Below, one piece after another: positions 2,780 to 46,369 of a DNA stretch of 64,000 nucleotides. This DNA comes from Myxococcota bacterium (GTDB taxonomy: Bacteria; Myxococcota_A; Polyangia; Nannocystales; Nannocystaceae): the NCBI GenBank assembly GCA_039028615.1, contig JBCCHT010000002.1, forward strand, positions 128,001 through 192,000, written 5' to 3'. The translations under genes and the position numbers were made by a program. The notes below the pieces were generated by a model that ran no database searches, had not been told where the DNA came from, and saw nothing but the letters and a program-made list of their open reading frames with translations. Within the stretch, counting starts at the first letter, position 1, and each line of letters opens with the position of its first letter.

Positions 2780-2928
2780 CGCGACCGTCGGCCCTCGATC
2801 GCGCGGCTCGTTCGGTCAAAGCCCTACATTTCGTCGAGGTTTCGAAATCGACCGACAGCACCGGCCTCGCAGCCGCGCTCGGTTTCTCTTTACACGCCGC
2901 GCCCCTTCCTTCAGCCTGAAAACCGAAA

Positions 2929-5757
2929 GTGTCAGGCAGCCTCACCGGAGACACGACGCAGGGGACGCTGGTCGACGACCAGCTCGATCCCGACCGCGAA
3001 GAGGGCCGCGCCGAAGGACCCAAGGTCATCGGTCGCTACCAGGTCCTCAGCACGCTGGGCACGGGAGGCATGGGCACCGTGTTCGCGGCGCACGACCCCG
3101 AGCTCGATCGACGCGTGGCCCTCAAGCTGCTGCACGCCAGCGAGACCTCGGGCGGCCGCGCCGACCGGGCCCGCTCGCGACTGCAACGCGAAGCCCGGGC
3201 CATCGCCCAGGTCAAACACGAAAACGTCATCCAGGTCTACGACGTGGGGCTGGTCGATCTGCGGGGCCGCGGCCGCGACCAGGTATTCGTCGCCATGGAG
3301 CTGGTCGAGGGACACAGCTTTCGTCAGTGGCTGCATCGCCTACACGCCACCCCCGAGTGGAGCCGGGGGCAGGCCACCGAGTCCATCGTGGAGGTCATGG
3401 CCCAGGCCGCCCGGGGCCTGGCCGCCGCGCATGATTCCGGGCTCGTCCACCGCGACTTCAAGCCCGACAACGCGCTGCTCGGCAACGACGGAGTGGTCCG
3501 CGTGGTCGACTTCGGCCTGGCCCGCCGCGCCGACCAAGGCGACTCGAGCACCGGGCCCGTCCTCGCCGAACCCAGCGTCGAATCCGAGACCAGCCACAGC
3601 GGCTCGCTCGACGAGCGCATCACCAAGACGGGCGCCATGCTGGGCACGCCCGCCTATATGGCCCCGGAGCAGTTTCGCCGGCAGCCCATGGATGGCCGCA
3701 CCGACCAGTTCGCGTTCTGCTTGGTCCTGCACGAGGCGCTCTACGGCACGCGGGCCTTCCCCATGGGCGCGGCGGCTCGAGCCGCGGCCGTGGTGGCGGG
3801 AGACCGCTGCGAGCTGCCCGACGAACCGCCCGTGCCCGCCTATCTACGGGCGGTGATCGATCGCGGCCTGCAGGTCGACCCCGAGGCTCGATTCCCCTCG
3901 ATGAACGCGCTCGTCGAGGCCATGCTCGACAACCCGATCGTCCGCCGACGCAAGCGCATTCGCTGGAGCCTGGGCGGCGTGCTCGCGCTGGGAGCCGCCG
4001 GGGCGCTCGTCTCCGCCCGTCCCGAGGCCGCCGCTCCCCAGGACGCCTGCGGCCACGGGCGCGACCGCATGGAGACGGTGTGGAACGCCGAGCGTCGCCA
4101 TGCCGTCGAGGCGGCGCTACAGGTGGAGAGCCTGCCCTACTCGACCCACGTCGCAAGAGCGACCAACGTGGTCCTCGATCGCTACGCCGAGCGCTGGGAA
4201 GCGGCCCACCGCGAGGCCTGCGAGGCGACCCACGTGCACCACGAACAGACCGGGGCCCTGCTCGACCGCCGCAATGCCTGCCTCGAGCGTCGCCTCTCCG
4301 CCCTCGGGGCGTCCATCGATCTGCTGACCACCGTGCAGCCCGACCAGGTCGAGCACGCGCTCACCGTGGCCAACGGCTTGCCCGCGATCGATGCCTGCAC
4401 CAGCCGTAGCGCCCTCGAGTTCAGCGGGCCCCCGGCTCCCGACGAGAGCACGGCCGACGCGGTGGCCGAGGTCGAGGCCCAGATGGAGCGCGCCTCCGCC
4501 CGCCAGCTGCTCCACCGCGAAGACGAAGCGCTGCAGATGCTCGAGGCCCTCGCCCCCCGCGTCAAAGCCATCGGCCACGCGCCGCTGCAGGCCGACTACC
4601 TCTACGAGCAGGGCATCGCGCTGGCCGAGACGGGCAAGTTCGAGCAAGGCGTCGAGGTCCTGCGTAGCGCCATGCTCGAGGCCCAGACGCTGAGCATGGA
4701 CCCGCTGTTTCGGGACGCGACCTCGAAGATGGCGATGTACATCGGGCACGACCTCGCCAAGCCGGAGCAAGCCCTGCCCTGGGCCGACCTGGCCGAGGCC
4801 ACCGACGAGCGCATCGGCTCCACCGACGCGACCAAGGCCCGGCTGCTGAGCAACCGCACCTGGCTGCTCGCCGCGTGGGACATGAAGCCCGAGGCCACTG
4901 AAGTGGCCGAACAGGCCCTCGCCGCCGCCGAGCGAGCCCACGACGAGGATGCGTACGAGCTGATCAACGTGCACGCCAACCTCGCGTCGGCGTTCGGGCG
5001 GTTGCGGGCGGTCGACCGCGCCAAGCCGCATTTCGAACGGGCGCTGGAGCTGACCAAGCAGCACTTCGGCCCCGACCACCCCAAGCTCATCGGTCACTAC
5101 ATCAACCTGGGCAACGTGCTCACCGCCATGGGTGAGCTGGAGGCGGGCGCTCGCCACCTGCACAACGCCGCGCGGCTCACCCGGAACCTACCCAAGGTCA
5201 ACCCGCGCGAGCGGGCCCTGGTCGCCTCGGCGCTGGGCAACCATGCGCTACGAAGCCGCGACTTCGAGGCGGCGCTCGAGCACCATCGGCTCGCCCTGCG
5301 GCTACGCGAGGAGCTCTACGGTCCCGAGCACCCCATGGTGGCCCGCACGCTCAACAGCCTGGCCGGGGCCGCGCGCCGCCTCGAACGCAACGACGAAGCG
5401 ATCGGCTACTACGAGCGTTCGCTGGCCATCCGCGAGAAAGCGATGGGCCCCGAGCACCCCGATCTGTTGCTCGTGCTCGATAACCTCGGCGTGTTCATGC
5501 TCGAGCTGGGACGCTCTGCCGATGCCCTGCCGTACCTTCACCGATCCCATGCCCTGGTGCTCGAGCACGGCGATATTCCTCCTCGCGAAGCCGAGCACTG
5601 GTTCTGGTACGGCCGCGCTCTCGTCGAGTCGGGGCGCGACGCCGAGACGGGCATGGACGCGGTGCGAGAGGCCTTGAGCCGCTACGAGAAGCTCGACCTG
5701 CCCAACAAGGCCAAGCAGGCCAACGAGTGGCTGGCCGAGCGTGGGCTCGAGCTGTGA
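2929..5757 (+). CDS. Ser/Thr protein kinase - TM - TPR receptor
   Basis: LGTGGMG, VALK, HRDFKPDN, DFG, GTPAYMAPE; RRRKR followed by a TM helix; Cys-containing linker; GP(D/E)HP-type TPRs. Confidence 0.92.
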   Translation: MSGSLTGDTTQGTLVDDQLDPDREEGRAEGPKVIGRYQVLSTLGTGGMGTVFAAHDPELDRRVALKLLHASETSGGRADRARSRLQREARAIAQVKHENVIQVYDVGLVDLRGRGRDQVFVAMELVEGHSFRQWLHRLHATPEWSRGQATESIVEVMAQAARGLAAAHDSGLVHRDFKPDNALLGNDGVVRVVDFGLARRADQGDSSTGPVLAEPSVESETSHSGSLDERITKTGAMLGTPAYMAPEQFRRQPMDGRTDQFAFCLVLHEALYGTRAFPMGAAARAAAVVAGDRCELPDEPPVPAYLRAVIDRGLQVDPEARFPSMNALVEAMLDNPIVRRRKRIRWSLGGVLALGAAGALVSARPEAAAPQDACGHGRDRMETVWNAERRHAVEAALQVESLPYSTHVARATNVVLDRYAERWEAAHREACEATHVHHEQTGALLDRRNACLERRLSALGASIDLLTTVQPDQVEHALTVANGLPAIDACTSRSALEFSGPPAPDESTADAVAEVEAQMERASARQLLHREDEALQMLEALAPRVKAIGHAPLQADYLYEQGIALAETGKFEQGVEVLRSAMLEAQTLSMDPLFRDATSKMAMYIGHDLAKPEQALPWADLAEATDERIGSTDATKARLLSNRTWLLAAWDMKPEATEVAEQALAAAERAHDEDAYELINVHANLASAFGRLRAVDRAKPHFERALELTKQHFGPDHPKLIGHYINLGNVLTAMGELEAGARHLHNAARLTRNLPKVNPRERALVASALGNHALRSRDFEAALEHHRLALRLREELYGPEHPMVARTLNSLAGAARRLERNDEAIGYYERSLAIREKAMGPEHPDLLLVLDNLGVFMLELGRSADALPYLHRSHALVLEHGDIPPREAEHWFWYGRALVESGRDAETGMDAVREALSRYEKLDLPNKAKQANEWLAERGLEL

Positions 5758-38320: not shown

Positions 38321-40156
38321 TCACTCCCACACGGAGCGGGATCGCAGCGACTCGGGCCACGGTTCGCCGCGGTTGCCCGGGATGTCGGCGCCCCCCTCGT
38401 CGCGCACGAAGTTGTCGACCGCACTGAATGCTCTCTCACGGTTGCTGCGACCGCCCTGGAGCCGCAGTGGAGCCAATACGCCGTCTTCGGCGACGGTGAC
38501 CACCTCGTGCGGTGCCGCTCGAAGGTCGACCAGCGCGCCCTTGCGCTTTTCGTTGAGCAACTGCTCTTCGTTGCCGATCGGGTCGGCGATGGTCTTGGCC
38601 TTGAACGTCCACACCAGCAGCGCCGTGGGGTCGCGCGGGGCGAACTCCGGGTTCTCTGCCAGTAGATCGGTCATGCCGTAGTAGGTCTTGCCGATGTCGT
38701 CTTGGTTGATCGGCCCCGCCATCATGCACACGCCTGCGAGCAGGTCGCAGTCGTCGGGGAGGTCCACGACCCCCATGAGCTCGGCGTAGAGGCTGCCGCG
38801 ACTGGCGGCCGACCCCACCGCCCGCACCGCGAGCTCCCAGTCGAGCTTGGCCGCCTTCACCTCGGGGCGCGAGAGCCCAGCGATGTAGATGCGCTGGCCC
38901 GCGAGCGCGAAGGCCTTGCGCCCGCGCGCGGCGTTGCGGGACAGCGCCCGGTTGAGCGCCAGGTCGGCCCACAGCGGAATGCGCTCGACGATCCGCTCGG
39001 TGATCGCCCCGAGCTTGTCCCGCAGATCTCGCAGTCGCTGCTTGCCCCCCGGCGTCAGCACGTCGACCCGGTCGAGCATCAGCAAGTGCTTGGCGTGATC
39101 GCGGTCGGCCCCCGTCCAGCGCTCGAAGGCGTTGTAGGCGGCACGCCCGGCCTGCGCCGTGAACTCGTCCGAGACGTCCATGTCCTGGCGCTCTTGGTAC
39201 TGGGCCGGAGCCTTGTCCTCTTGGTTGACCCCCGGCTGGATGCGCTCGCTACGAAACGCCAGCAGGTTGGCGCCGAGCTTGGGCCACAGGGCGTCGGCCT
39301 CCTGTTCGCTCAGCCCCTCGAACTCGACGCGCTCCTCGGGCAGGGCGCGGCCCACCTGCACCACCATCGCCACGCGCCAGCCCTTGCGGTGGTCGGCCGC
39401 GCTGAGCATGCACATGCGTTCGAGCGCTGCGATGGGCTCCCGATTGCGGGAGCGGTTGCCCCCGCAGAAGGGAGCCTGGAAGATCTGCGCGCGACGACGG
39501 CCGCGGGAGCCGATCACCACCGCCCGCTCCATCGCATCGGCCAGGATGCCCAGGTGCAGGTCTTGGAGATAGCCGATGGTCGGGATGTCGTGGATGTGCT
39601 GCGTGGCCTTGCGGATCGCCCGAACGGGGACCGTCACCAGGCTCTTGAAGGGCTCGTGACCGATGAAGGTCAGCAGCATCGTGAACGGCGTCCGGTAGGG
39701 TCGCGAGAGCACCACGTGCGTGTAGCTGGCGCCGTCGAGCACCGCCCCCGCCCCGCCCTCGTCGATGCCCTTGCACTTGCGGAGCAGCGCGGCGATTTCC
39801 GTGCTGTCGTCGGGACCGAAGCTCACCTGACGGTGGCCGCGATAGTTGGTCGACTGCCGCGAGCTGAGGATGCCGAGCGAGGACTCCTCGAACAGCTCCT
39901 CTTCGCGCACGGGCTGGATCGGACCGAACCCCGTGGGCGCCTGCAGCGACAGCAGCGCGAGCGCGGCCTGGCCCTCGGCCTGCGACAGCGGAACCCGCGT
40001 GCGGTACCCGACCGGCGATCCGGACTCGAGCGCGTTCGGCAGCGAGTACCGGGTTCGCTTCTGTCCCTCGTCGGCGAAGCGAGCACCCCGACGGACCCGC
40101 TGCTCGGGCGGCGGCGGGTCCACGGTCACCAGCTCCAACGACTTCGGTGCGGGCAT
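38321..40156 (-). CDS. Large cytoplasmic hypothetical protein (~610 aa)
   Basis: ATG 40156; strong GC3 bias, globular composition; family not recognised. Confidence 0.75.
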   Translation of the reverse strand: MPAPKSLELVTVDPPPPEQRVRRGARFADEGQKRTRYSLPNALESGSPVGYRTRVPLSQAEGQAALALLSLQAPTGFGPIQPVREEELFEESSLGILSSRQSTNYRGHRQVSFGPDDSTEIAALLRKCKGIDEGGAGAVLDGASYTHVVLSRPYRTPFTMLLTFIGHEPFKSLVTVPVRAIRKATQHIHDIPTIGYLQDLHLGILADAMERAVVIGSRGRRRAQIFQAPFCGGNRSRNREPIAALERMCMLSAADHRKGWRVAMVVQVGRALPEERVEFEGLSEQEADALWPKLGANLLAFRSERIQPGVNQEDKAPAQYQERQDMDVSDEFTAQAGRAAYNAFERWTGADRDHAKHLLMLDRVDVLTPGGKQRLRDLRDKLGAITERIVERIPLWADLALNRALSRNAARGRKAFALAGQRIYIAGLSRPEVKAAKLDWELAVRAVGSAASRGSLYAELMGVVDLPDDCDLLAGVCMMAGPINQDDIGKTYYGMTDLLAENPEFAPRDPTALLVWTFKAKTIADPIGNEEQLLNEKRKGALVDLRAAPHEVVTVAEDGVLAPLRLQGGRSNRERAFSAVDNFVRDEGGADIPGNRGEPWPESLRSRSVWE

Positions 40157-40244
40157 CGACGGAACCCTACTGCGGCCGAACCGTGGAGGCGAGTCCAGGG
40201 CGTCCGACCGATGTGCGCCCGCTCTCGCCGGTCGAGAGACGGGC

Positions 40245-41165
40245 TCAGTCGGTCGCCAACCCGAGCCCCTCGACCGCCCGGGCGAATCGAGCCGCCCGCA
40301 CGCGCCCGGCCACGCCGAGCACCCCTCGATCGCGGGCCCAGCGGGCGCGCACCGGTTCTTCCAGCGCCTCCCAGTGGCCATTGCAGCGGTCCAGCCAGCG
40401 GTCGAAGGTGGTCAGCACGCCACCTAACGCGAGGTGTGTCGCGGGGTCCAGTGGGGGTCGCTCCGACAGATCCGACAGCGCACCAAGGACGACGAGCCCC
40501 TCCGCGAGCGCGGCGGCGGGCCAGCCCGCATGGCGACCCACCCCCACCACGTGGGCCGCGGCGGCCGCGACGACGTGGATGTCCTCGACGGTGCGAAACG
40601 GCTTGATCCACCGGCCGTAGCCGTCGCCCTCCAGGACCGCCTCGGCGGGCACGCTCACCTCCTCGAGGGTGAGACGAAAATGAGGGATCTCGGGGATGAA
40701 GGGCGTGGGCGGCATCGCGTGGAGGGTCAGCCCCTTCGCATCGACCGGCACCCGCACCATCTTCAAACGATTGCGACCCTCCCGTTCGCCGATGGACGCC
40801 GCCACGAGCAGGCTCTGGGCGCGCCCGGCCAGGGTCGACCACTGCTTGGTCCCGGTCACCACGACCGTGTCGCCCTTCGCCGTCAGTCGGGTGCGGATCG
40901 CTCGGGGGTGCCCGCCCCCTTCCTCGGTGATGCAGACCGCCGCGTGCCCCGACTCGCCCGTGAGGCTCAGCAGCGCCGAGCGATAGCCAGTGGCAAAGGC
41001 CAAGCCCAGTCGATCCGCCGCGAGCCCGCCGAGCACCGCCCGCTCGAAGCTCCGACCCGACAGCGCATCCCAGTACTCGAGCATCGCGTCGAGCTCGGTC
41101 TGGACGGGAGCGGAACGAGGGCCCGTCAGTGCGGCGAGCCAGTCGGTCTCGGTCGGCGGATTCAC
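40245..41165 (-). CDS. Acyl-CoA dehydrogenase-like protein (short form)
   Basis: AVCITEEGG, VTGTKQWST, LEGDGY...IKPFRTVED. Confidence 0.8.
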   Translation of the reverse strand: MNPPTETDWLAALTGPRSAPVQTELDAMLEYWDALSGRSFERAVLGGLAADRLGLAFATGYRSALLSLTGESGHAAVCITEEGGGHPRAIRTRLTAKGDTVVVTGTKQWSTLAGRAQSLLVAASIGEREGRNRLKMVRVPVDAKGLTLHAMPPTPFIPEIPHFRLTLEEVSVPAEAVLEGDGYGRWIKPFRTVEDIHVVAAAAAHVVGVGRHAGWPAAALAEGLVVLGALSDLSERPPLDPATHLALGGVLTTFDRWLDRCNGHWEALEEPVRARWARDRGVLGVAGRVRAARFARAVEGLGLATD

Positions 41166-41199
41166 CCGCCCAGTGTAAACGATGGCCCTGGCGCGACGC

Positions 41200-42051
41200 T
41201 CAAGCGGGTGCGGCGTCCGAGCCTCGCTCGATGAAGAACCCCGCAGCGATCCATCGCCCGCGCACCTCGTCGTGCCACGACCGCTCGACCTCGGCCAGCG
41301 AGCGCTGCTGCTCCTGGGCCACCCACTGCAGCGCCTCGCCCACCGTCCCGTGGTCTCGCAGCGTGGACAAGAACACGTGGTGGACGCGATTGAGGGGCAC
41401 GGTCGAGGTCATGAAGTCCTTGCGGACGATGGCCACATGCGAGGTCCGGGCGGAGGGAAACGAAGGGTCCTGCTCGGCGCGAACCTGGTGGTAGTACCAG
41501 GCCACCGGGTAGCGAAAGGTCTCGAGGACGAATGCGGGCTGGAGTACGAGCCGCTCGTCGGGGGTGTCCACGGTCGGCCATGGCTTGCCCTCGTGACCGG
41601 GCGCGTCGAAGAGCCGGAACTGCTCGAACTCGTAGCGCGCCAGGTCGACCATGAAGTCGATCCAGTCCTCGCGCTGGGCGGGCGGCAAGTCACGGTCGGG
41701 GCGCGCGTGGTCGAGGTACCCGGAAAAGCGCCGACCCAGCTCGTGCAAGGTGTAGCTGCTGGGCGGGTGGGCCCACAGGTACTCGCGGGCGAAGTCGTGG
41801 AAGAGCTCTTCGCCCAGGGCATGGCACAGCGCGGGAAACTGCTCGGCCAGGCACTTGCACAGCCGCAGGATGTACGCGCGCTGGTAGATGCCGAGCCGAG
41901 CCCGGGCATCGAGCTTCGGCGACGCCAGCAGCCGCCGCTCGACCTGCTCGTCATCGACCCGGCCCGGAAACACGAGCGACTCGAAGAGCCAGCGCTGCGT
42001 CCCCGCGAGGCCGTCGTCGCGCTCGGGAGCGGGTGAAGCCGAGCTCATCAT
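41200..42051 (-). CDS. DUF2063-type MNIO partner protein (BufC/HvfC-like)
   Basis: RLGIYQRAY..RL..CL..QFP.L...LG...F..F...Y....PP.S..L..LG..F, DLARYE; ATGA-coupled to the DUF692 gene. Confidence 0.88.
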   Translation of the reverse strand: MMSSASPAPERDDGLAGTQRWLFESLVFPGRVDDEQVERRLLASPKLDARARLGIYQRAYILRLCKCLAEQFPALCHALGEELFHDFAREYLWAHPPSSYTLHELGRRFSGYLDHARPDRDLPPAQREDWIDFMVDLARYEFEQFRLFDAPGHEGKPWPTVDTPDERLVLQPAFVLETFRYPVAWYYHQVRAEQDPSFPSARTSHVAIVRKDFMTSTVPLNRVHHVFLSTLRDHGTVGEALQWVAQEQQRSLAEVERSWHDEVRGRWIAAGFFIERGSDAAPA

Positions 42052-43013
42052 ACGCCCTCGAGCCGGGTTCGTGACATCACCTGCGGCACCATGAAGTCGA
42101 CGGGGGTGGAGATGCACGAGCTGGCGTCGAGCTCGGCGCCGCGCAGATGCTCGCACTCGAGTCCGCCGTGCATGAAGTCGCGCGCCCGCAGCACCTCTTG
42201 GTGGACGCGATCGAACGCGGGCACGTCACCGTCCCACTCGAGCAGGGTCGACGCCCCGCCCGTTCGTTGCCACGCCACGCGAAACAGCTCCCAGACCGCG
42301 TCACAGACCGGCTGATCGTGGGTATCGACGAGGTGGTCTCCGCAGTTTTGGTGCCCGGCCAAGTGCAGCTGCACGACCCGCTCGAACGGAAAGGCCTCGA
42401 GGTACGCCAACGGGTCGGCGCCCGCATTGAAGCAGGTGACGTAGACGTTGTTGACGTCGAGCAGGAGCCCGCAGCCCGTGCGCTCGGCCAGCGCCCGCAG
42501 GAAGTCGGGCTCTTCCATGGTGGTGTCGGCGAAGCCGATGTATGTGCTCGGGTTCTCGAGCACCAGCGGTCGGCGCAGCGCCTCTTGCACCAAGGCCACC
42601 CGCCGAGCCACGTGGTCGAGGGTCTCTTCGTTGAGCGGCAGGGGCAGCAAGTCGTGGCTATTGGCGCCCTGCACCCCGGTCCAGCACAGGTGGTCGCTGA
42701 CCCACACGGCACGGATGTCGTCGGCGAGCACCTTGACCTTGCGCAGGTACTCGGGGTCGAGCGGATCGGTGCTGCCGATCGACATCGAGACCCCGTGGAG
42801 CACGACGGGGTAGCGCTCGGCGACCTGCCGAATCACGTGCCCCGGGCGGCCCCCGGAATCCATGAAGTTCTCCGTGATGGCCTCGAACCAATCCACGGCC
42901 GGCCACTTCGACACGATGTGGCCGAAGTGGGTGCTCCGAAGGCCGATGCCCAGCCCCAGCCGCGGCAGCGTGGAGATGGCCGGTGCACCGGGCGACTGTC
43001 CGCCGTCGTTCAG
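42048..43013 (-). CDS. DUF692 multinuclear non-heme iron oxidase (MNIO)
   Basis: GIGLR, WFE..ENF, HGVSMSIG, SDHLCW, HDLLPLP, LENPS.Y, LLLDVNN, QLHLAGH, VDTH, LLEWD; start placed at CTG 43013 (see findings). Confidence 0.93.
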   Translation of the reverse strand: MNDGGQSPGAPAISTLPRLGLGIGLRSTHFGHIVSKWPAVDWFEAITENFMDSGGRPGHVIRQVAERYPVVLHGVSMSIGSTDPLDPEYLRKVKVLADDIRAVWVSDHLCWTGVQGANSHDLLPLPLNEETLDHVARRVALVQEALRRPLVLENPSTYIGFADTTMEEPDFLRALAERTGCGLLLDVNNVYVTCFNAGADPLAYLEAFPFERVVQLHLAGHQNCGDHLVDTHDQPVCDAVWELFRVAWQRTGGASTLLEWDGDVPAFDRVHQEVLRARDFMHGGLECEHLRGAELDASSCISTPVDFMVPQVMSRTRLEGV

Positions 43014-45058
43014 GCGCAGCTCCCCGCCCCGCTGAGGCCGCTCGAGCCACAGGCGGTCATGCCTCCCCCTTCGTTCTGGATCCACTCGATGGTGGGCCCG
43101 TCCTTGAACAGATCGGGGTCGTTGGTGGAGCCGGGGATGTTCGGCGGCTCGGCGGGGAGCTTGGGGTCTCGCGCCTTGTGCTTGGCCCAGAACACCTTGC
43201 GAGCCCGGTGCCACACGCTCTTGCCCTGGTTGCCGCCATCGGTGCTGAAGCGCTCGGCGTTGATGGGCGTGGCGCACGAGCCCAGGGAGCGACAATCGTT
43301 GTCCCCCGGGGAGTCTTGCTCTTCGGCCGTGCCGTAGAGGCCACAGCCGCCCTGCCCCCGGCAATCGTTGCGCACGTGGCACTGATGGTCGGTGACGGAG
43401 GGGTTGCCGGCATCGGCCGGGTTCCACTGCAGCGCGGTGGAGCAGTAGCCCATGCCCGCGCAGTCGTTGCTCAGCGTCCGCCCCTGGTTCTTGCAGTCGT
43501 TGAGCCCCATGCACGCGTGACGGCTCGCGCCGCCGGGAATGGTGGCGGGCGGCTGCCGCGGGAACACGGGGGCCCCCGCGAACTTGTCGTCGTCCTTCCA
43601 GTAGTCGCTCACGTCGGGGAGCTGCTTGATCATCGGGATCAGCCAGCTGATGTCGCTGTACCAGGGCTCGTTGCCACACGCGGTCGCGACCGCGTCGGCC
43701 AGCTCGGAGAGGCTCTGGAACGCCCGATCCCGGCTGCCCAGCGACAGGTTCTCGAAGGTCGGCGCCAACGCGACCACCGTCCCCTTCGACGTGGTCTCGA
43801 TGCCGCGCATCGCCTGCAGGAACTTGTCGAGGATCCAGATCATCGACATGTGCAGCGCCCGATTGAAGTAGACTTTCTGGTCTGCCGACGGCACCTTGAA
43901 GATGGTCTCGGTCAGGATCAGCATGTACTGGTACAGGCCGCTGGAGAGGTCGACTACCGACTTGTAGGGCGCCGCGAGATCGGCGGACACCGGGTTGGTG
44001 GGGTACGGCACCACGAACTCGGCGAGCTGTGCGGGCGTGAAGGGGTGCTCGGGGGGCTTGGGCGGCTGGGGCCGCAACGGCAGCGGCTCGCCCTTGCCGT
44101 TCTTCATGCCTTTGGCGTGCCACTCGTAGCCCTCGAGCTCGGACTGCAGCGTCAGGAACTTGTAGTAGTGCGACAGCTCCTGCTTGGAGGGGTCGTCGAC
44201 CTTGGTGTTGTTGAAGCCCTCGCCCTGAAAGTCGATGGTGGCGATGGCCTCGAGCGCCTCTTCGCAGGAGGTGATGGTGGTCAGCTGGAAGCGCCCGGTG
44301 TGGCTGTCCTCGCGACTGGCAAAGTCGGTGACCTGCGCCGCCGAGCCCGGAGCGGAGGCGGGGACCGGCGTCGTCTTGTCGAAGGACGCCGTCGGGTACG
44401 CGGTGTCGATGTTGTTGGGCGAGTAGTTGCCCGGCTGAATCTGCTGATTCTTGGCCCCTTGGAGGAAGTCGGAGTCCTCGATCCACTGGGAGTAGATGAT
44501 GCAGCGAATGTACGAGTAGACCTGGCCGATGGTCTCCCAGTTGGAGCCCTCGGGCGGCGCATCGGCGTTGGCCGGATACTCGATCTCGAGGAAGTTCCAC
44601 AGCTGCTGCTCGGAGAAGGGCGCCAGCGGCAGCGCGAGCGTCTTCGCGTCTGGGCCCAGCTTGGCGTGCCCCGGTAAATTCGTCGGGTAGGGCCCCGGAG
44701 ACAGCAAATAGAGCCGTGGTTGCTGCCCCAGCGAGAACGAGATGTTCGACGACAGGGACATGTGCAGCATCTCTTCGACAGCCACGCTCATGATGAGCGC
44801 TCCCGCCTTGTCGGCGAAGCGAGCGACCGGGCTCTGCGGGAAGCCGGCGTTGGCGGGAGAGCCCGTGATCGTGCGGTTGATCGAGTAGTACGTGTACAGA
44901 TAGATGGGGATGGTCGCGAGCTCGATCTCGACGGCCACCTGCAGGTGTGCCTTCAGCTCCGACAGTGCCCGCTCACGGGTCCACGTGTCGTTGATCGTAT
45001 CGATGAGCTTCTGCTCGGAACGCGAGGGTTTCGGTACACCGTACGGGGTCTTGGCCAT
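43010..45058 (-). CDS. Ferritin-like domain protein (PF12902, VioB/RebD-related) fused to a Cys-rich bufferin-precursor-like C-terminal domain
   Basis: GGAGG RBS; LQ.A..IELATIP.YL...YSI, EEMLH....N, FL.IE.P, TIGQ.Y, QGEG, SHYYKF; C-terminal NDCKNQG/NDCAGMG/NDCRGQG/NDCRSLG repeats. Confidence 0.85.
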   Translation of the reverse strand: MAKTPYGVPKPSRSEQKLIDTINDTWTRERALSELKAHLQVAVEIELATIPIYLYTYYSINRTITGSPANAGFPQSPVARFADKAGALIMSVAVEEMLHMSLSSNISFSLGQQPRLYLLSPGPYPTNLPGHAKLGPDAKTLALPLAPFSEQQLWNFLEIEYPANADAPPEGSNWETIGQVYSYIRCIIYSQWIEDSDFLQGAKNQQIQPGNYSPNNIDTAYPTASFDKTTPVPASAPGSAAQVTDFASREDSHTGRFQLTTITSCEEALEAIATIDFQGEGFNNTKVDDPSKQELSHYYKFLTLQSELEGYEWHAKGMKNGKGEPLPLRPQPPKPPEHPFTPAQLAEFVVPYPTNPVSADLAAPYKSVVDLSSGLYQYMLILTETIFKVPSADQKVYFNRALHMSMIWILDKFLQAMRGIETTSKGTVVALAPTFENLSLGSRDRAFQSLSELADAVATACGNEPWYSDISWLIPMIKQLPDVSDYWKDDDKFAGAPVFPRQPPATIPGGASRHACMGLNDCKNQGRTLSNDCAGMGYCSTALQWNPADAGNPSVTDHQCHVRNDCRGQGGCGLYGTAEEQDSPGDNDCRSLGSCATPINAERFSTDGGNQGKSVWHRARKVFWAKHKARDPKLPAEPPNIPGSTNDPDLFKDGPTIEWIQNEGGGMTACGSSGLSGAGSCA

Positions 45059-45229
45059 GATCATCCTCCCACCGGGCAAACGGGCCCGGGCAACCATCGT
45101 CCACGGTACACGATCACCCGCAGCAAACCCGAGCCCGCATCATGATCCGAATGACGTTAGTCAGGACCGATGCGGGCCGGCGATGAAATCGAGTGACATC
45201 GCGGTTTCGAACCGCGGCCGCTCCCAGTC

Positions 45230-45595
45230 TTACTCGCGCTCCATCTTGCGGATCTGGGTCACCATCGCCTCGAGCCGCTCGACTCGCTCCTTCGCCCGCG
45301 CGTGCACCTTCTTGAAGTCGACGTCGTCGAGGCCGAGCTTGGCCGCTTCGTCGTACTTGGCCAGCGCCTGCTCGGTACGCGACAGGCAGGTCGCGACCTT
45401 GCCCCCGGAGATGGCCGCGGCGTCTTGGCCCTCGGCGTAGTGCAGCTTGCAGGGCCCGCGCTCCGCGTCGCCTTCGATCTGCAGCCCCTCCATGTACAGG
45501 TCGTTCTTGTTCGGACCGCGTTCACAGCCCCCCACCATCACGAGCGCAGCGAGCCACAAGGAGGGACGACGAACGATGGAGCGAGTGCGAGCCAT
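45230..45595 (-). CDS. Small helical lipoprotein
   Basis: MARTRSIVRRPSLWLAALVMVGGC lipobox; 121 aa; the real gene at the tail of a longer shadow ORF. Confidence 0.75.
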   Translation of the reverse strand: MARTRSIVRRPSLWLAALVMVGGCERGPNKNDLYMEGLQIEGDAERGPCKLHYAEGQDAAAISGGKVATCLSRTEQALAKYDEAAKLGLDDVDFKKVHARAKERVERLEAMVTQIRKMERE

Positions 45596-45736
45596 GGCGA
45601 CCCCTTCATCATGCACCACCTGTGCCCCCGCCGCATCGGGGCGCCCGAGCCTACCGACCGCAGCGCCGCGCAGCGCCCCTGGCACGAGGGGGTTTTTGTC
45701 CCCGCGGCGGGCGCTAGGCTGCGCGGTGGAGGTCCG

Positions 45737-46369
45737 ATGCCGAGAACCCTGAGTACCCGCGCGCTGCTGGTGGTGCACACCCAGCGCATCTTCGAAGGCA
45801 TGCAAGAGATTGCGACGCCCGTGAACGAGGCGGTCGCCCAAGCCAAGGCGGACGGTCGTCAGATCGTGTATCTCGCGGATACCTCGGGCAACGGAGGCGC
45901 GCAGTGGGTGCTCGATCACGAGCCCGACCCCAAAGACGTCGAAGAGGCCGGGGCCGGGATCCACGATTTCCGCGTGCTCACCAAGGACGTGATGCTCGTC
46001 GGAGGCTGGTGGCTGGCGTGCACGGGCAACGCCATCATCGGCGCGATGTTCGGCCACTTCTCTCCCCAGCCTCCCGAGCCCGGGCCGCTGCTCCTTCGGA
46101 TTCCGATGCGCGCGACCTCGTGCCAGGGCGAGACGCTCTATCAGCGCTTCGATGAGACGTCGGACTTCTTCGGGGGCATTCGAACGGACGTGGGCAAGAT
46201 GAAGCAGATGGCCGAACTCCTGGGTCCGCTGGGCAACACTCTGCCCTGGGACGAGTTCACCATCGACGGCCAGGTATTCCGGGTCCGCGACCAGCGGGTG
46301 CTGACCACCGTGCAGCTCCAGGCCGGCACGGGGCCGCGGCGCCCGGTGTTCCTGCGCTTCGAGGTCTAG
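45737..46369 (+). CDS. Hypothetical protein, divergent isochorismatase/cysteine-hydrolase-like
   Basis: GGAGG RBS before ATG 45737; ALLVVHTQRIF...AKADGRQIVY...VMLVGG...AC. Confidence 0.55.
   Translation: MPRTLSTRALLVVHTQRIFEGMQEIATPVNEAVAQAKADGRQIVYLADTSGNGGAQWVLDHEPDPKDVEEAGAGIHDFRVLTKDVMLVGGWWLACTGNAIIGAMFGHFSPQPPEPGPLLLRIPMRATSCQGETLYQRFDETSDFFGGIRTDVGKMKQMAELLGPLGNTLPWDEFTIDGQVFRVRDQRVLTTVQLQAGTGPRRPVFLRFEV

Follow-up and report, generated by a model that had tools for sequence, protein, structure and literature searches.

RESULTS

Gene layout of the cassette

The stretch analyzed here (the window) comprises 64,000 nucleotides (nt) from a Myxococcota bacterium (GenBank assembly GCA_039028615.1, contig JBCCHT010000002.1, positions 128,001 to 192,000). 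On its minus strand, three genes lie head to tail between window positions 41200 and 45058, encoding a ferritin-like protein with a cysteine (Cys)-rich C-terminal tail, a BufB-type oxidative enzyme of the multinuclear nonheme iron-dependent kind (MNIO; DUF692) and a DUF2063 partner, respectively. An earlier note, made from the sequence alone, had predicted this trio, and Pfam matches bear it out: gene 1 belongs to PF12902 (E 2.8e-36; 125.9 bits versus a gathering cut-off of 22.3), gene 2 matches PF05114 (E 6.6e-105), and gene 3 matches PF09836 (E 4.1e-19; 69.1 bits versus a cut-off of 27.2). The features, with positions in amino acids (aa) referring to gene 1, are as follows.

43010..45058, minus strand: gene 1, fusion of a ferritin-like module and a Cys-rich, distantly BufA2-like module; 682 aa, stop codon at 43010-43012
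43589..45058, minus strand: ferritin-like module, aa 1-490; PF12902 match over aa 39-305 (nt 44144-44944)
43520..43588, minus strand: linker, aa 491-513; conserved Pro-rich P-x-F-P, present in the consensus of fused and stand-alone forms
43268..43519, minus strand: Cys-rich core, aa 514-597; nine invariant Cys, with HAC-x-G-L-N-x-C and four N-x-C units
43064..43267, minus strand: conserved follower region, aa 598-665; PINAERF, then a SVW-x-RAR helix, then GPTIEW, in fused and split forms
43013..43063, minus strand: C-terminal motif, aa 666-682; G-M-T-A-C-G-S-S-G-x-S-G-A-G-S-C-A, bearing the final two of the invariant Cys
42048..43085, minus strand: gene 2, BufB-type MNIO (DUF692); start uncertain, conserved core from near 42962
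41200..42051, minus strand: gene 3, DUF2063 partner, PME-type 1 by its Pfam signature; 283 aa

The stop codon of the MNIO gene and the start codon of the partner gene share the ATGA at 42051-42048. The nearest canonical MNIO start is the GTG at 43085, and no ATG, GTG or TTG occurs from there to the conserved core, so that the MNIO gene either overlaps gene 1 by 76 nt or has a noncanonical start. Thus, where three tightly overlapping genes had been described, the overlap of genes 2 and 3 is observed and that of genes 1 and 2 is probable. Neither candidate N-terminus of gene 1 contains a hydrophobic signal-like segment (read by eye), in line with the earlier statement that the fusion lacks a signal peptide.

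The Cys-rich tail is strictly conserved and distantly related to BufA2

The tail (aa 514-682, nt 43519-43013, 169 aa) contains 11 Cys, the four units NDCKNQG, NDCAGMG, NDCRGQG and NDCRSLG, and a terminal GSCA, all of which had been pointed out previously. As all 11 Cys are invariant in 22 aligned homologues, the Cys pattern is not a product of chance, and the tail as a whole is conserved at least as well as the ferritin-like part. The C-terminal motif is likewise invariant in the 22 aligned homologues; it is present in stand-alone forms of the module and absent from divergent subfamilies. The tail occurs as a single copy in the window's genome.

Searches against Pfam gave no match to the tail or to the middle region of gene 1, up to an E value of 10. 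The NCBIfam BufA2 model (NF050166) matched a 90-aa piece of the tail at E 0.0018 (18.5 bits; cut-off, 60), and 47 of 54 tail-family members matched it weakly (E ≤ 0.01; best, 4.6e-7), all of them under the curated cut-off. Consistently, a profile of the tail family aligned with the genome's own BufA2 proteins in hhalign at E 1.4e-4 and 8.2e-6, and the alignment spans the H-x-C-x-G-x-N-x-C-K and N-x-C-x-G motifs. The tail therefore yields neither of the matches by which the precursor of a bufferin cluster is recognized, namely, BufA1 (DUF2282) or BufA2 above the curated cut-off, and from these alignments we read it as a distant, signal-less relative of BufA2. Within it, the Cys-rich core is proposed as the site of MNIO modification; the preceding linker (aa 491-513) is a candidate leader-like recognition segment.

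A profile search with the Cys-rich module among 1.84 billion cluster representatives returned 338 proteins at E ≤ 1e-3. We scanned 36 long representatives, of which 28 carry PF12902, two DoxX and one a piece of an MNIO, with the remaining five giving no match; PF12902 is thus what this module is most often fused to, also far outside the window's own subfamily. The cluster representatives include many more short proteins (440-650 aa) in which PF12902 and the Cys-rich module are joined. In the two DoxX fusions (P0398 and P0377), the Cys-rich module stands behind a DoxX domain (PF07681), a membrane protein typical of bufferin clusters.

The tail co-occurs with the MNIO and partner genes across phyla

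A search of 5.8 billion proteins for homologues of gene 1 gave, out of 8000 scored candidates, 673 matches at E ≤ 1e-3, of which the best 120 are 624-857 aa long and 49-63% identical, at 89-100% coverage. Gene neighborhoods were examined in the best 80 of 153 stretches encoding a relative of gene 1, with one genome per species, found via the tail motifs; all locus counts refer to this set. The 80 loci belong to Pseudomonadota, Myxococcota, Acidobacteriota, Verrucomicrobiota, Bacteroidota and Actinomycetota, and the carriers include cultured strains such as Tahibacter aquaticus, Kordiimonas lipolytica and Paraburkholderia terricola. By tblastn, an MNIO gene lies directly downstream in 79 of the 80 loci and a partner gene is present in 78. 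The exceptions are L078, which ends at the contig end inside gene 1, and L008, which ends just after the MNIO. Both are contig ends, so the full cassette is present in every locus with enough DNA. In some metagenome-assembled genomes, tblastn matches were split over two frames (gene 1 of L001, L034 and L061; the MNIO of L057), which reflects either assembly frameshifts or pseudogenes.

As loci found via tail motifs might be biased toward complete cassettes, the test was repeated with the ferritin-like module alone (aa 1-489). Strong matches to this query were found in 7 of 301 genomes (one order) and in 2 of 40 relatives of the window's genome, and all nine have both the tail and an MNIO downstream. 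Homologous fusions lacking DUF692, which the earlier note had named as evidence that would speak against it, were thus not the usual form. Among the weak matches, the PF12902 paralogues L096, L097, L098, L106 and L108 have neither tail nor MNIO within the 1.5 kb examined. The sixth weak match, L107, proved upon extension (L109) to encode a 709-aa fusion of PF12902-like and Cys-rich parts, followed directly by an MNIO:

L109 (G197:C114:4500-8534): fusion open reading frame (ORF) 701-2830, MNIO 2843-3802; 25% identity to P0001, without the C-terminal C-G-S-S...S-C-A motif

The cassette is patchily distributed among relatives of the window's genome (2 of 40), and the MNIO tree does not track taxonomy; together, these two features suggest horizontal spread.

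The Cys-rich module exists in fused and split forms

In 23 of the 80 loci, the Cys-rich module is encoded by a separate gene of ~150-220 aa with its own ribosome-binding site and ATG; Sphingomonas trueperi and Chitinimonas viridis are examples. In these split loci, the ferritin-like gene ends a few codons past a conserved LPDVxxYW motif and is followed by a spacer of 2-117 nt, mostly containing a purine-rich Shine-Dalgarno-like stretch, and then by the ATG; the stop and restart codons map to the region equivalent to the linker (aa 491-513). The stand-alone Cys-rich proteins, like the fusion, have no signal peptide (read by eye). The earlier note had found no separate small precursor gene. This holds for the window's operon, whereas in the 23 split loci the tail itself is such a gene.

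In 18 of the 22 split loci in which both genes are visible, the two lie in one frame, the spacer lengths (18-117 nt) being divisible by three; this count carries no probability because split loci are not phylogenetically independent. The shared frame fits fission or fusion by the gain or loss of a single stop codon. On a quickly built MNIO tree, parsimony requires 8 changes between fused and split states, at least 2 of which are forced by starred branches. Thus, the tail is an autonomous module, and its joining to and parting from the ferritin-like protein took place more than once. Such a history is classical evidence for a functional, and probably physical, link between the two. A search for stand-alone forms returned 496 proteins of 96-308 aa at E ≤ 1e-3, none of them with a Pfam domain.

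The split locus L028 has the order MBE0620226 (ferritin-like), MBE0620227.1 (Cys-rich), MBE0620228 (MNIO) and MBE0620229 (partner). Its ferritin-like protein (MBE0620226.1, 655 aa, L028:2097-4064) has an N-terminal extension of ~130 aa that the window's protein does not have.

The ferritin-like module carries an invariant set of candidate metal ligands

Residues E46, E96, H99, E160, E280 and H297 are invariant in 24 sequences, namely, P0001 and 23 further members that are 23-52% identical to it, with divergent subfamilies included and a mean column identity of 21%. Six Cys are also invariant in this alignment of divergent members. Four Glu and two His match the ligand count of di-iron carboxylate proteins, and we infer from the alignment that this Glu4His2 set is a candidate di-metal site.

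The only solved relative of the module is 3hl1 (CC_0557), which Foldseek aligns at E 6e-6 with a TM score of 0.60-0.70 on the target and which hmmsearch recovers at E 2.2e-8; both proteins have E-L-x-T-I-P-x-Y-L and E-M-L-H motifs. The earlier note had also connected PF12902 with VioB, RebD and StaD. That connection stands as a common domain and goes no further. The VioB model (TIGR04492), an equivalog of ~1000 aa for iminophenyl-pyruvate dimer synthases, scores 20 bits against a cut-off of 1250, and only aa 32-186 of gene 1 align, to model positions 603-754, which rules out gene 1 as a VioB-type synthase; the likeness to VioB, StaD and RebD is limited to the PF12902 domain. We know of no 3hl1, VioB, StaD or RebD protein with a Cys-rich tail or an MNIO neighbor.

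AlphaFold2 (71 sequences) modeled full-length gene 1 with a predicted template modeling score of 0.86. The predicted local distance difference test score (pLDDT) was high over aa 1-489, fell to 30-43 over aa 490-573, including the Cys-rich core, and averaged 79-89 per block over aa 601-660 and 58 over aa 661-670, in the follower region and just beyond. When the tail was predicted alone, its mean pLDDT was 52, and the follower region, with values of 49-88, was less confident than in the full-length model. These predictions are compatible with docking of the follower region on the ferritin-like module.

The MNIO is of the BufB type and its partner carries DUF2063

The best NCBIfam model for gene 2 is BufB (NF050167; 350.8 bits versus a cut-off of 310), as it is for all 67 cassette MNIOs examined; the cassette thereby has the BufB/HvfB-type MNIO of a bufferin cluster. 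For gene 3, the C-terminal NGO1945_C domain is weak (E 0.0015, under the cut-off), and the HvfC equivalog gives 70 bits against a cut-off of 142. Among the cassette partners, 61 of 61 match DUF2063 and 16 of 61 match NGO1945_C at E ≤ 1e-3. The hallmarks of a PME-type 1 partner, i.e., DUF2063 plus a C-terminal domain of the RiPP recognition element type (RiPP, ribosomally synthesized and posttranslationally modified peptide), encoded after the MNIO, are therefore present, the C-terminal domain being weak.

In 63 of 67 cassette MNIOs, the invariant E-W-D is followed by Gly; the BufA2-linked paralogues of the window's genome have Asp or Glu at this position. In Cys-Lys MNIOs, the catalytic Asp is followed by Asp (PMC13097082), and the Asp of E-W-D probably corresponds to that catalytic residue. 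On the quick MNIO tree, the 67 cassette MNIOs fall on one side of a branch and five paralogues from the window's genome on the other (Shimodaira-Hasegawa-like approximate likelihood ratio test [SH-aLRT], 94).

Neighboring genes and other MNIOs of the genome

No BufA-type ORF was found in the operon. A 126-aa lipoprotein-like ORF (45230-45610) was considered as a separate small precursor in the window and rejected, as it has no family match and no counterpart family in at least 6 loci. Clustering of all ORFs likewise revealed no exporter, protease, DoxX, sigma/anti-sigma or immunity family common to at least 6 of the 80 loci. A Sec or lipoprotein signal, as borne by bufferin precursors, is also absent, in that gene 1 and the stand-alone forms lack a hydrophobic N-region (read by eye).

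The only further gene family common to many loci encodes a protein of ~330-450 aa and lies upstream of the ferritin-like gene; of the 64 loci with at least 1.5 kb of upstream DNA, 20 have it:

Upstream gene of ~330-450 aa: L002, L004, L018-L020, L022, L026, L028, L029, L038
The same, continued: L041-L043, L046, L047, L050, L054, L066, L073, L074

It is mostly immediately adjacent and on the same strand, is antisense in L029, has a second copy downstream in L028 and is absent from the window. It has no Pfam match; the nearest ESM Atlas clusters are THAP4-like heme-binding beta-barrels (score, 0.96), a lead only as to function.

In the window, two ORFs downstream of the cassette (38321-40381 and 40245-41165, both on the minus strand) overlap in different frames; one is acyl-CoA dehydrogenase-like (middle domain only, E 6.9e-11) and the other, of 686 aa, has no family match. 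Neither has a counterpart family common to at least 6 of the 80 loci. Promoter/terminator and Rfam scans of window positions 40000-46000 gave no promoter-like site and no RNA family, and the terminator-like sites (4 versus 2.0 expected) all lie within coding sequence.

The window's genome (12.27 Mb, 94 contigs, 96.7% complete) contains 8 PF05114 matches, 6 of them strong (regions L081-L091). Its 3 BufA2 matches are on contigs other than that of the cassette, beside other MNIOs. The MNIOs on contigs C25 and C22 adjoin canonical BufA2 precursors with lipoprotein-type signals, one of which is a tandem 12-Cys form of 156 aa. In this 96.7%-complete genome, DUF2282 gave 0 matches.

DISCUSSION

Proposed function and alternative explanations

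MNIO-PME1 clusters are among the commonest bacterial RiPP-type systems and are seen as makers of exported copper-binding peptides (bufferins, oxazolin and fontiphorin). The cassette described here keeps the enzyme pair of these clusters, coupled to a signal-less module that has time and again become part of, and come apart from, a large ferritin-like protein with a conserved candidate di-metal site. Because the tail takes the position of bufA, accompanies the MNIO pair in every locus with enough DNA for a check and shows distant homology to BufA2, it is the best candidate substrate, and we consider it quite likely, judging from gene order and homology, that the MNIO and its partner act on it. 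We also lean toward a broader proposal, with somewhat less assurance: the cassette would be an intracellular variant of the bufferin/captophorin systems, which are known so far only outside the cytoplasm. In this variant, Cys residues of the tail would be turned into ligands of the thiooxazole type, located on a di-metal ferritin-like protein or beside it, and would bind metal and work together with the ferritin-like site.

According to this proposal, the three genes would form a self-contained cassette making an intracellular, posttranslationally modified metalloprotein. The BufB-type MNIO and the DUF2063 partner would act on the C-terminal 170 aa of gene 1 and turn some of the invariant Cys into heterocycles of the 5-thiooxazole type, as reported for MNIO-PME1 pairs. 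Such heterocycles are broadly installed by MNIO-PME1 clusters (Gadgil et al. 2026, PMC13097082), and BufB1 plus BufC1 are necessary and sufficient to form them on BufA1, also in vitro, the signal peptide being dispensable (PMC11626156). Once modified, the module would be neither exported nor cut out. It would stay tethered to the ~490-aa ferritin-like module or, in split lineages, remain associated with it as a separate protein, and its thiooxazole ligands would bind a soft metal, copper or another, beside the candidate di-metal site or on its behalf. The predicted disorder of the Cys-rich core, as modeled, is consistent with this. The earlier note had arrived at modification of a tethered domain rather than of a secreted RiPP; the tail as best candidate substrate and the lack of any sign of export lend partial support to that idea, whereas tethering by fusion is not obligatory, as 23 of 80 loci are split.

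Several observations weigh against the proposal. The similarity of the tail to BufA2 is slight: the 90-aa piece stays at 18.5 bits against the cut-off of 60, the 176-aa tail has no BufA2 match at E ≤ 0.01, and the 169-aa piece reaches only E 0.69. Low pLDDT can stem from a shallow alignment rather than from true disorder. PF12902 is uncharacterized, and its sole solved relative, 3hl1, is an uncharacterized structural-genomics entry. Gly in place of an acidic residue after E-W-D implies that substrate recognition, and possibly the outcome, may differ from that of known systems. Moreover, PME-type 1 partners have been linked to precursors with Sec signals (PMC12452194), so that with 61 of 61 partners carrying DUF2063 and no signal peptide, either the cassette breaks this rule or the published family is mixed.

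The eleven invariant Cys could also form a Zn or Fe-S site, in which case the Cys-rich module would be an unmodified metal-binding domain and the MNIO pair would act on a substrate encoded elsewhere, such as the genome's BufA2 lipoproteins. The score of the tail under the curated BufA2 cut-off agrees with this, as do the genome's complement of 3 BufA2 and 8 PF05114 matches and the report that many precursors are encoded away from MNIO genes (PMC12452194). Yet each of the genome's BufA2 genes already lies beside its own MNIO, the cassette MNIOs are split from five same-genome paralogues (SH-aLRT 94, quick tree) and always travel with the tail across phyla, and the tail is homologous to BufA2; we therefore regard this explanation as quite improbable. 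Assigning the ferritin-like/Cys-rich protein an accessory role, in which it would be neither substrate nor product and would serve the MNIO as an iron or oxidant handler or as a chaperone of its cofactor, would account for the strict co-occurrence. MNIOs need a multi-iron cofactor, and ferritin-like folds handle iron. However, MNIO-PME1 clusters function in their thousands without any protein of this kind, with BufB1 and BufC1 sufficing in vitro (PMC11626156), and an accessory role would leave the cassette without a substrate gene and the BufA2 homology of the tail unexplained, so that we give it very little credence.

In borosins (OphMA), a precursor is fused to its own modifying enzyme, and the fused and split forms seen here resemble precursors joined to or separated from such an enzyme. 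By analogy, the ferritin-like module could be a di-metal oxidase that tailors its own C-terminal core together with the MNIO, with a peptide or small molecule released later. In size and elaboration, and in its invariant ligand set, the module resembles an enzyme; the THAP4-like upstream gene in 20 of 64 loci hints at redox chemistry, as a lead only; and the invariant C-G...S-C-A motif at the C-terminus might serve for release or modification. Against this, no protease, exporter or immunity family recurs in at least 6 of the 80 loci, and the whole 170-aa module, including the helical follower, shows the conservation of a folded or docked domain and not that of a leader with a short core, which makes this explanation unlikely in our view. 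It is also conceivable, albeit doubtful, that the MNIO-made thiooxazoles would constitute a forged metal center or cofactor (copper or another soft metal) for an intracellular PF12902 di-metal enzyme with the Glu4His2 set, rather than an exported metallophore. If so, this would be the first functional clue for PF12902 and the first instance of a protein-derived cofactor built by MNIO chemistry of the RiPP type.

Should the tail be modified as proposed for the intracellular bufferin/captophorin variant, thiooxazole chemistry would extend to an intracellular protein, the published association of PME-type 1 partners with Sec-exported precursors would have an exception, and the PF12902 fold, shared with VioB, StaD and RebD, would gain a functional context.

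Comparison with known systems

The cassette has in part been seen before. In an in silico survey (Antoine et al. 2025, PMC12452194), adjamnio-I (Cluster I) comprises 100 proteins (122-293 aa, 8-21 Cys) that lack a signal peptide, are encoded ahead of MNIOs and are assigned PME-type 2 partners. At 62% identity over 94% of the query, the window's tail matches P0133, i.e., MBE0620227.1 of L028, which is listed in Cluster_I, and thus belongs to this family by sequence. Adjamnio-I corresponds to the split form, whereas the window's module is the C-terminal domain of a 682-aa protein and is accompanied by a DUF2063 (PME-type 1) partner rather than by a stand-alone protein's PME-type 2 one. The Plesiocystis example of a PME-type 2 partner in that survey (WP_006975235, 276 aa; PMC12452194) is not the cassette partner, which in Plesiocystis is WP_157595057.1 (282 aa). 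The word "ferritin" does not occur in the text of PMC12452194, and five of five tested fused-form accessions are absent from its readable supplements. In a supplement of the same paper, the cassette MNIOs MBE0620228.1 and WP_006968953.1 each appear once in sheet Fig7B. The open-access literature searched, with subscription journals and some supplements lying outside the search, gave no description of a ferritin-like link or fusion. DUF692 and ferritin-like proteins are co-mentioned in papers on methanobactin biosynthesis and on the Caulobacter copper response. As the split protein family had already been flagged as adjamnio-I, the earlier note's remark that no example was known holds for characterized cases and for the ferritin-like link, and does not extend to the Cys-rich module itself. 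What is newly seen here is the ferritin-like link, together with its fused and split forms.

Fusions of bufferin-type modules to larger metal-related proteins have precedents: Buf1/cytochrome c/FGE-sulfatase, MerC/Buf1, MerC/Buf2 and Buf_EGKCG/EF-hand have been reported (PMC12452194). These are described as extracytoplasmic or membrane anchored and involve other partner domains; a signal-less PF12902 fusion is not among them. The closest systems are the bufferin 2/captophorin clusters, which share with the cassette a BufB-type MNIO, a DUF2063 partner and the order precursor-MNIO-partner (PMC11626156, PMC12452194, PMC13097082). The substrate module of the cassette, as proposed, likewise has N-x-C-K/R/A-G motifs and distant homology to BufA2. 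Unlike bufferin 2, the cassette lacks a Sec or lipoprotein signal, shows no DoxX or sigma/anti-sigma family common to at least 6 loci and has Gly after the Asp of E-W-D. Its module measures ~170 aa, contains 11 Cys and either is fused to a PF12902 protein of ~490 aa or has its gene beside the one for that protein. Taken together, this is a widespread cassette of three or four genes, in which the enzyme pair of bufferin 2/captophorin clusters accompanies a Cys-rich module whose link to a PF12902 protein, itself bearing a conserved Glu4His2 set, is obligatory.

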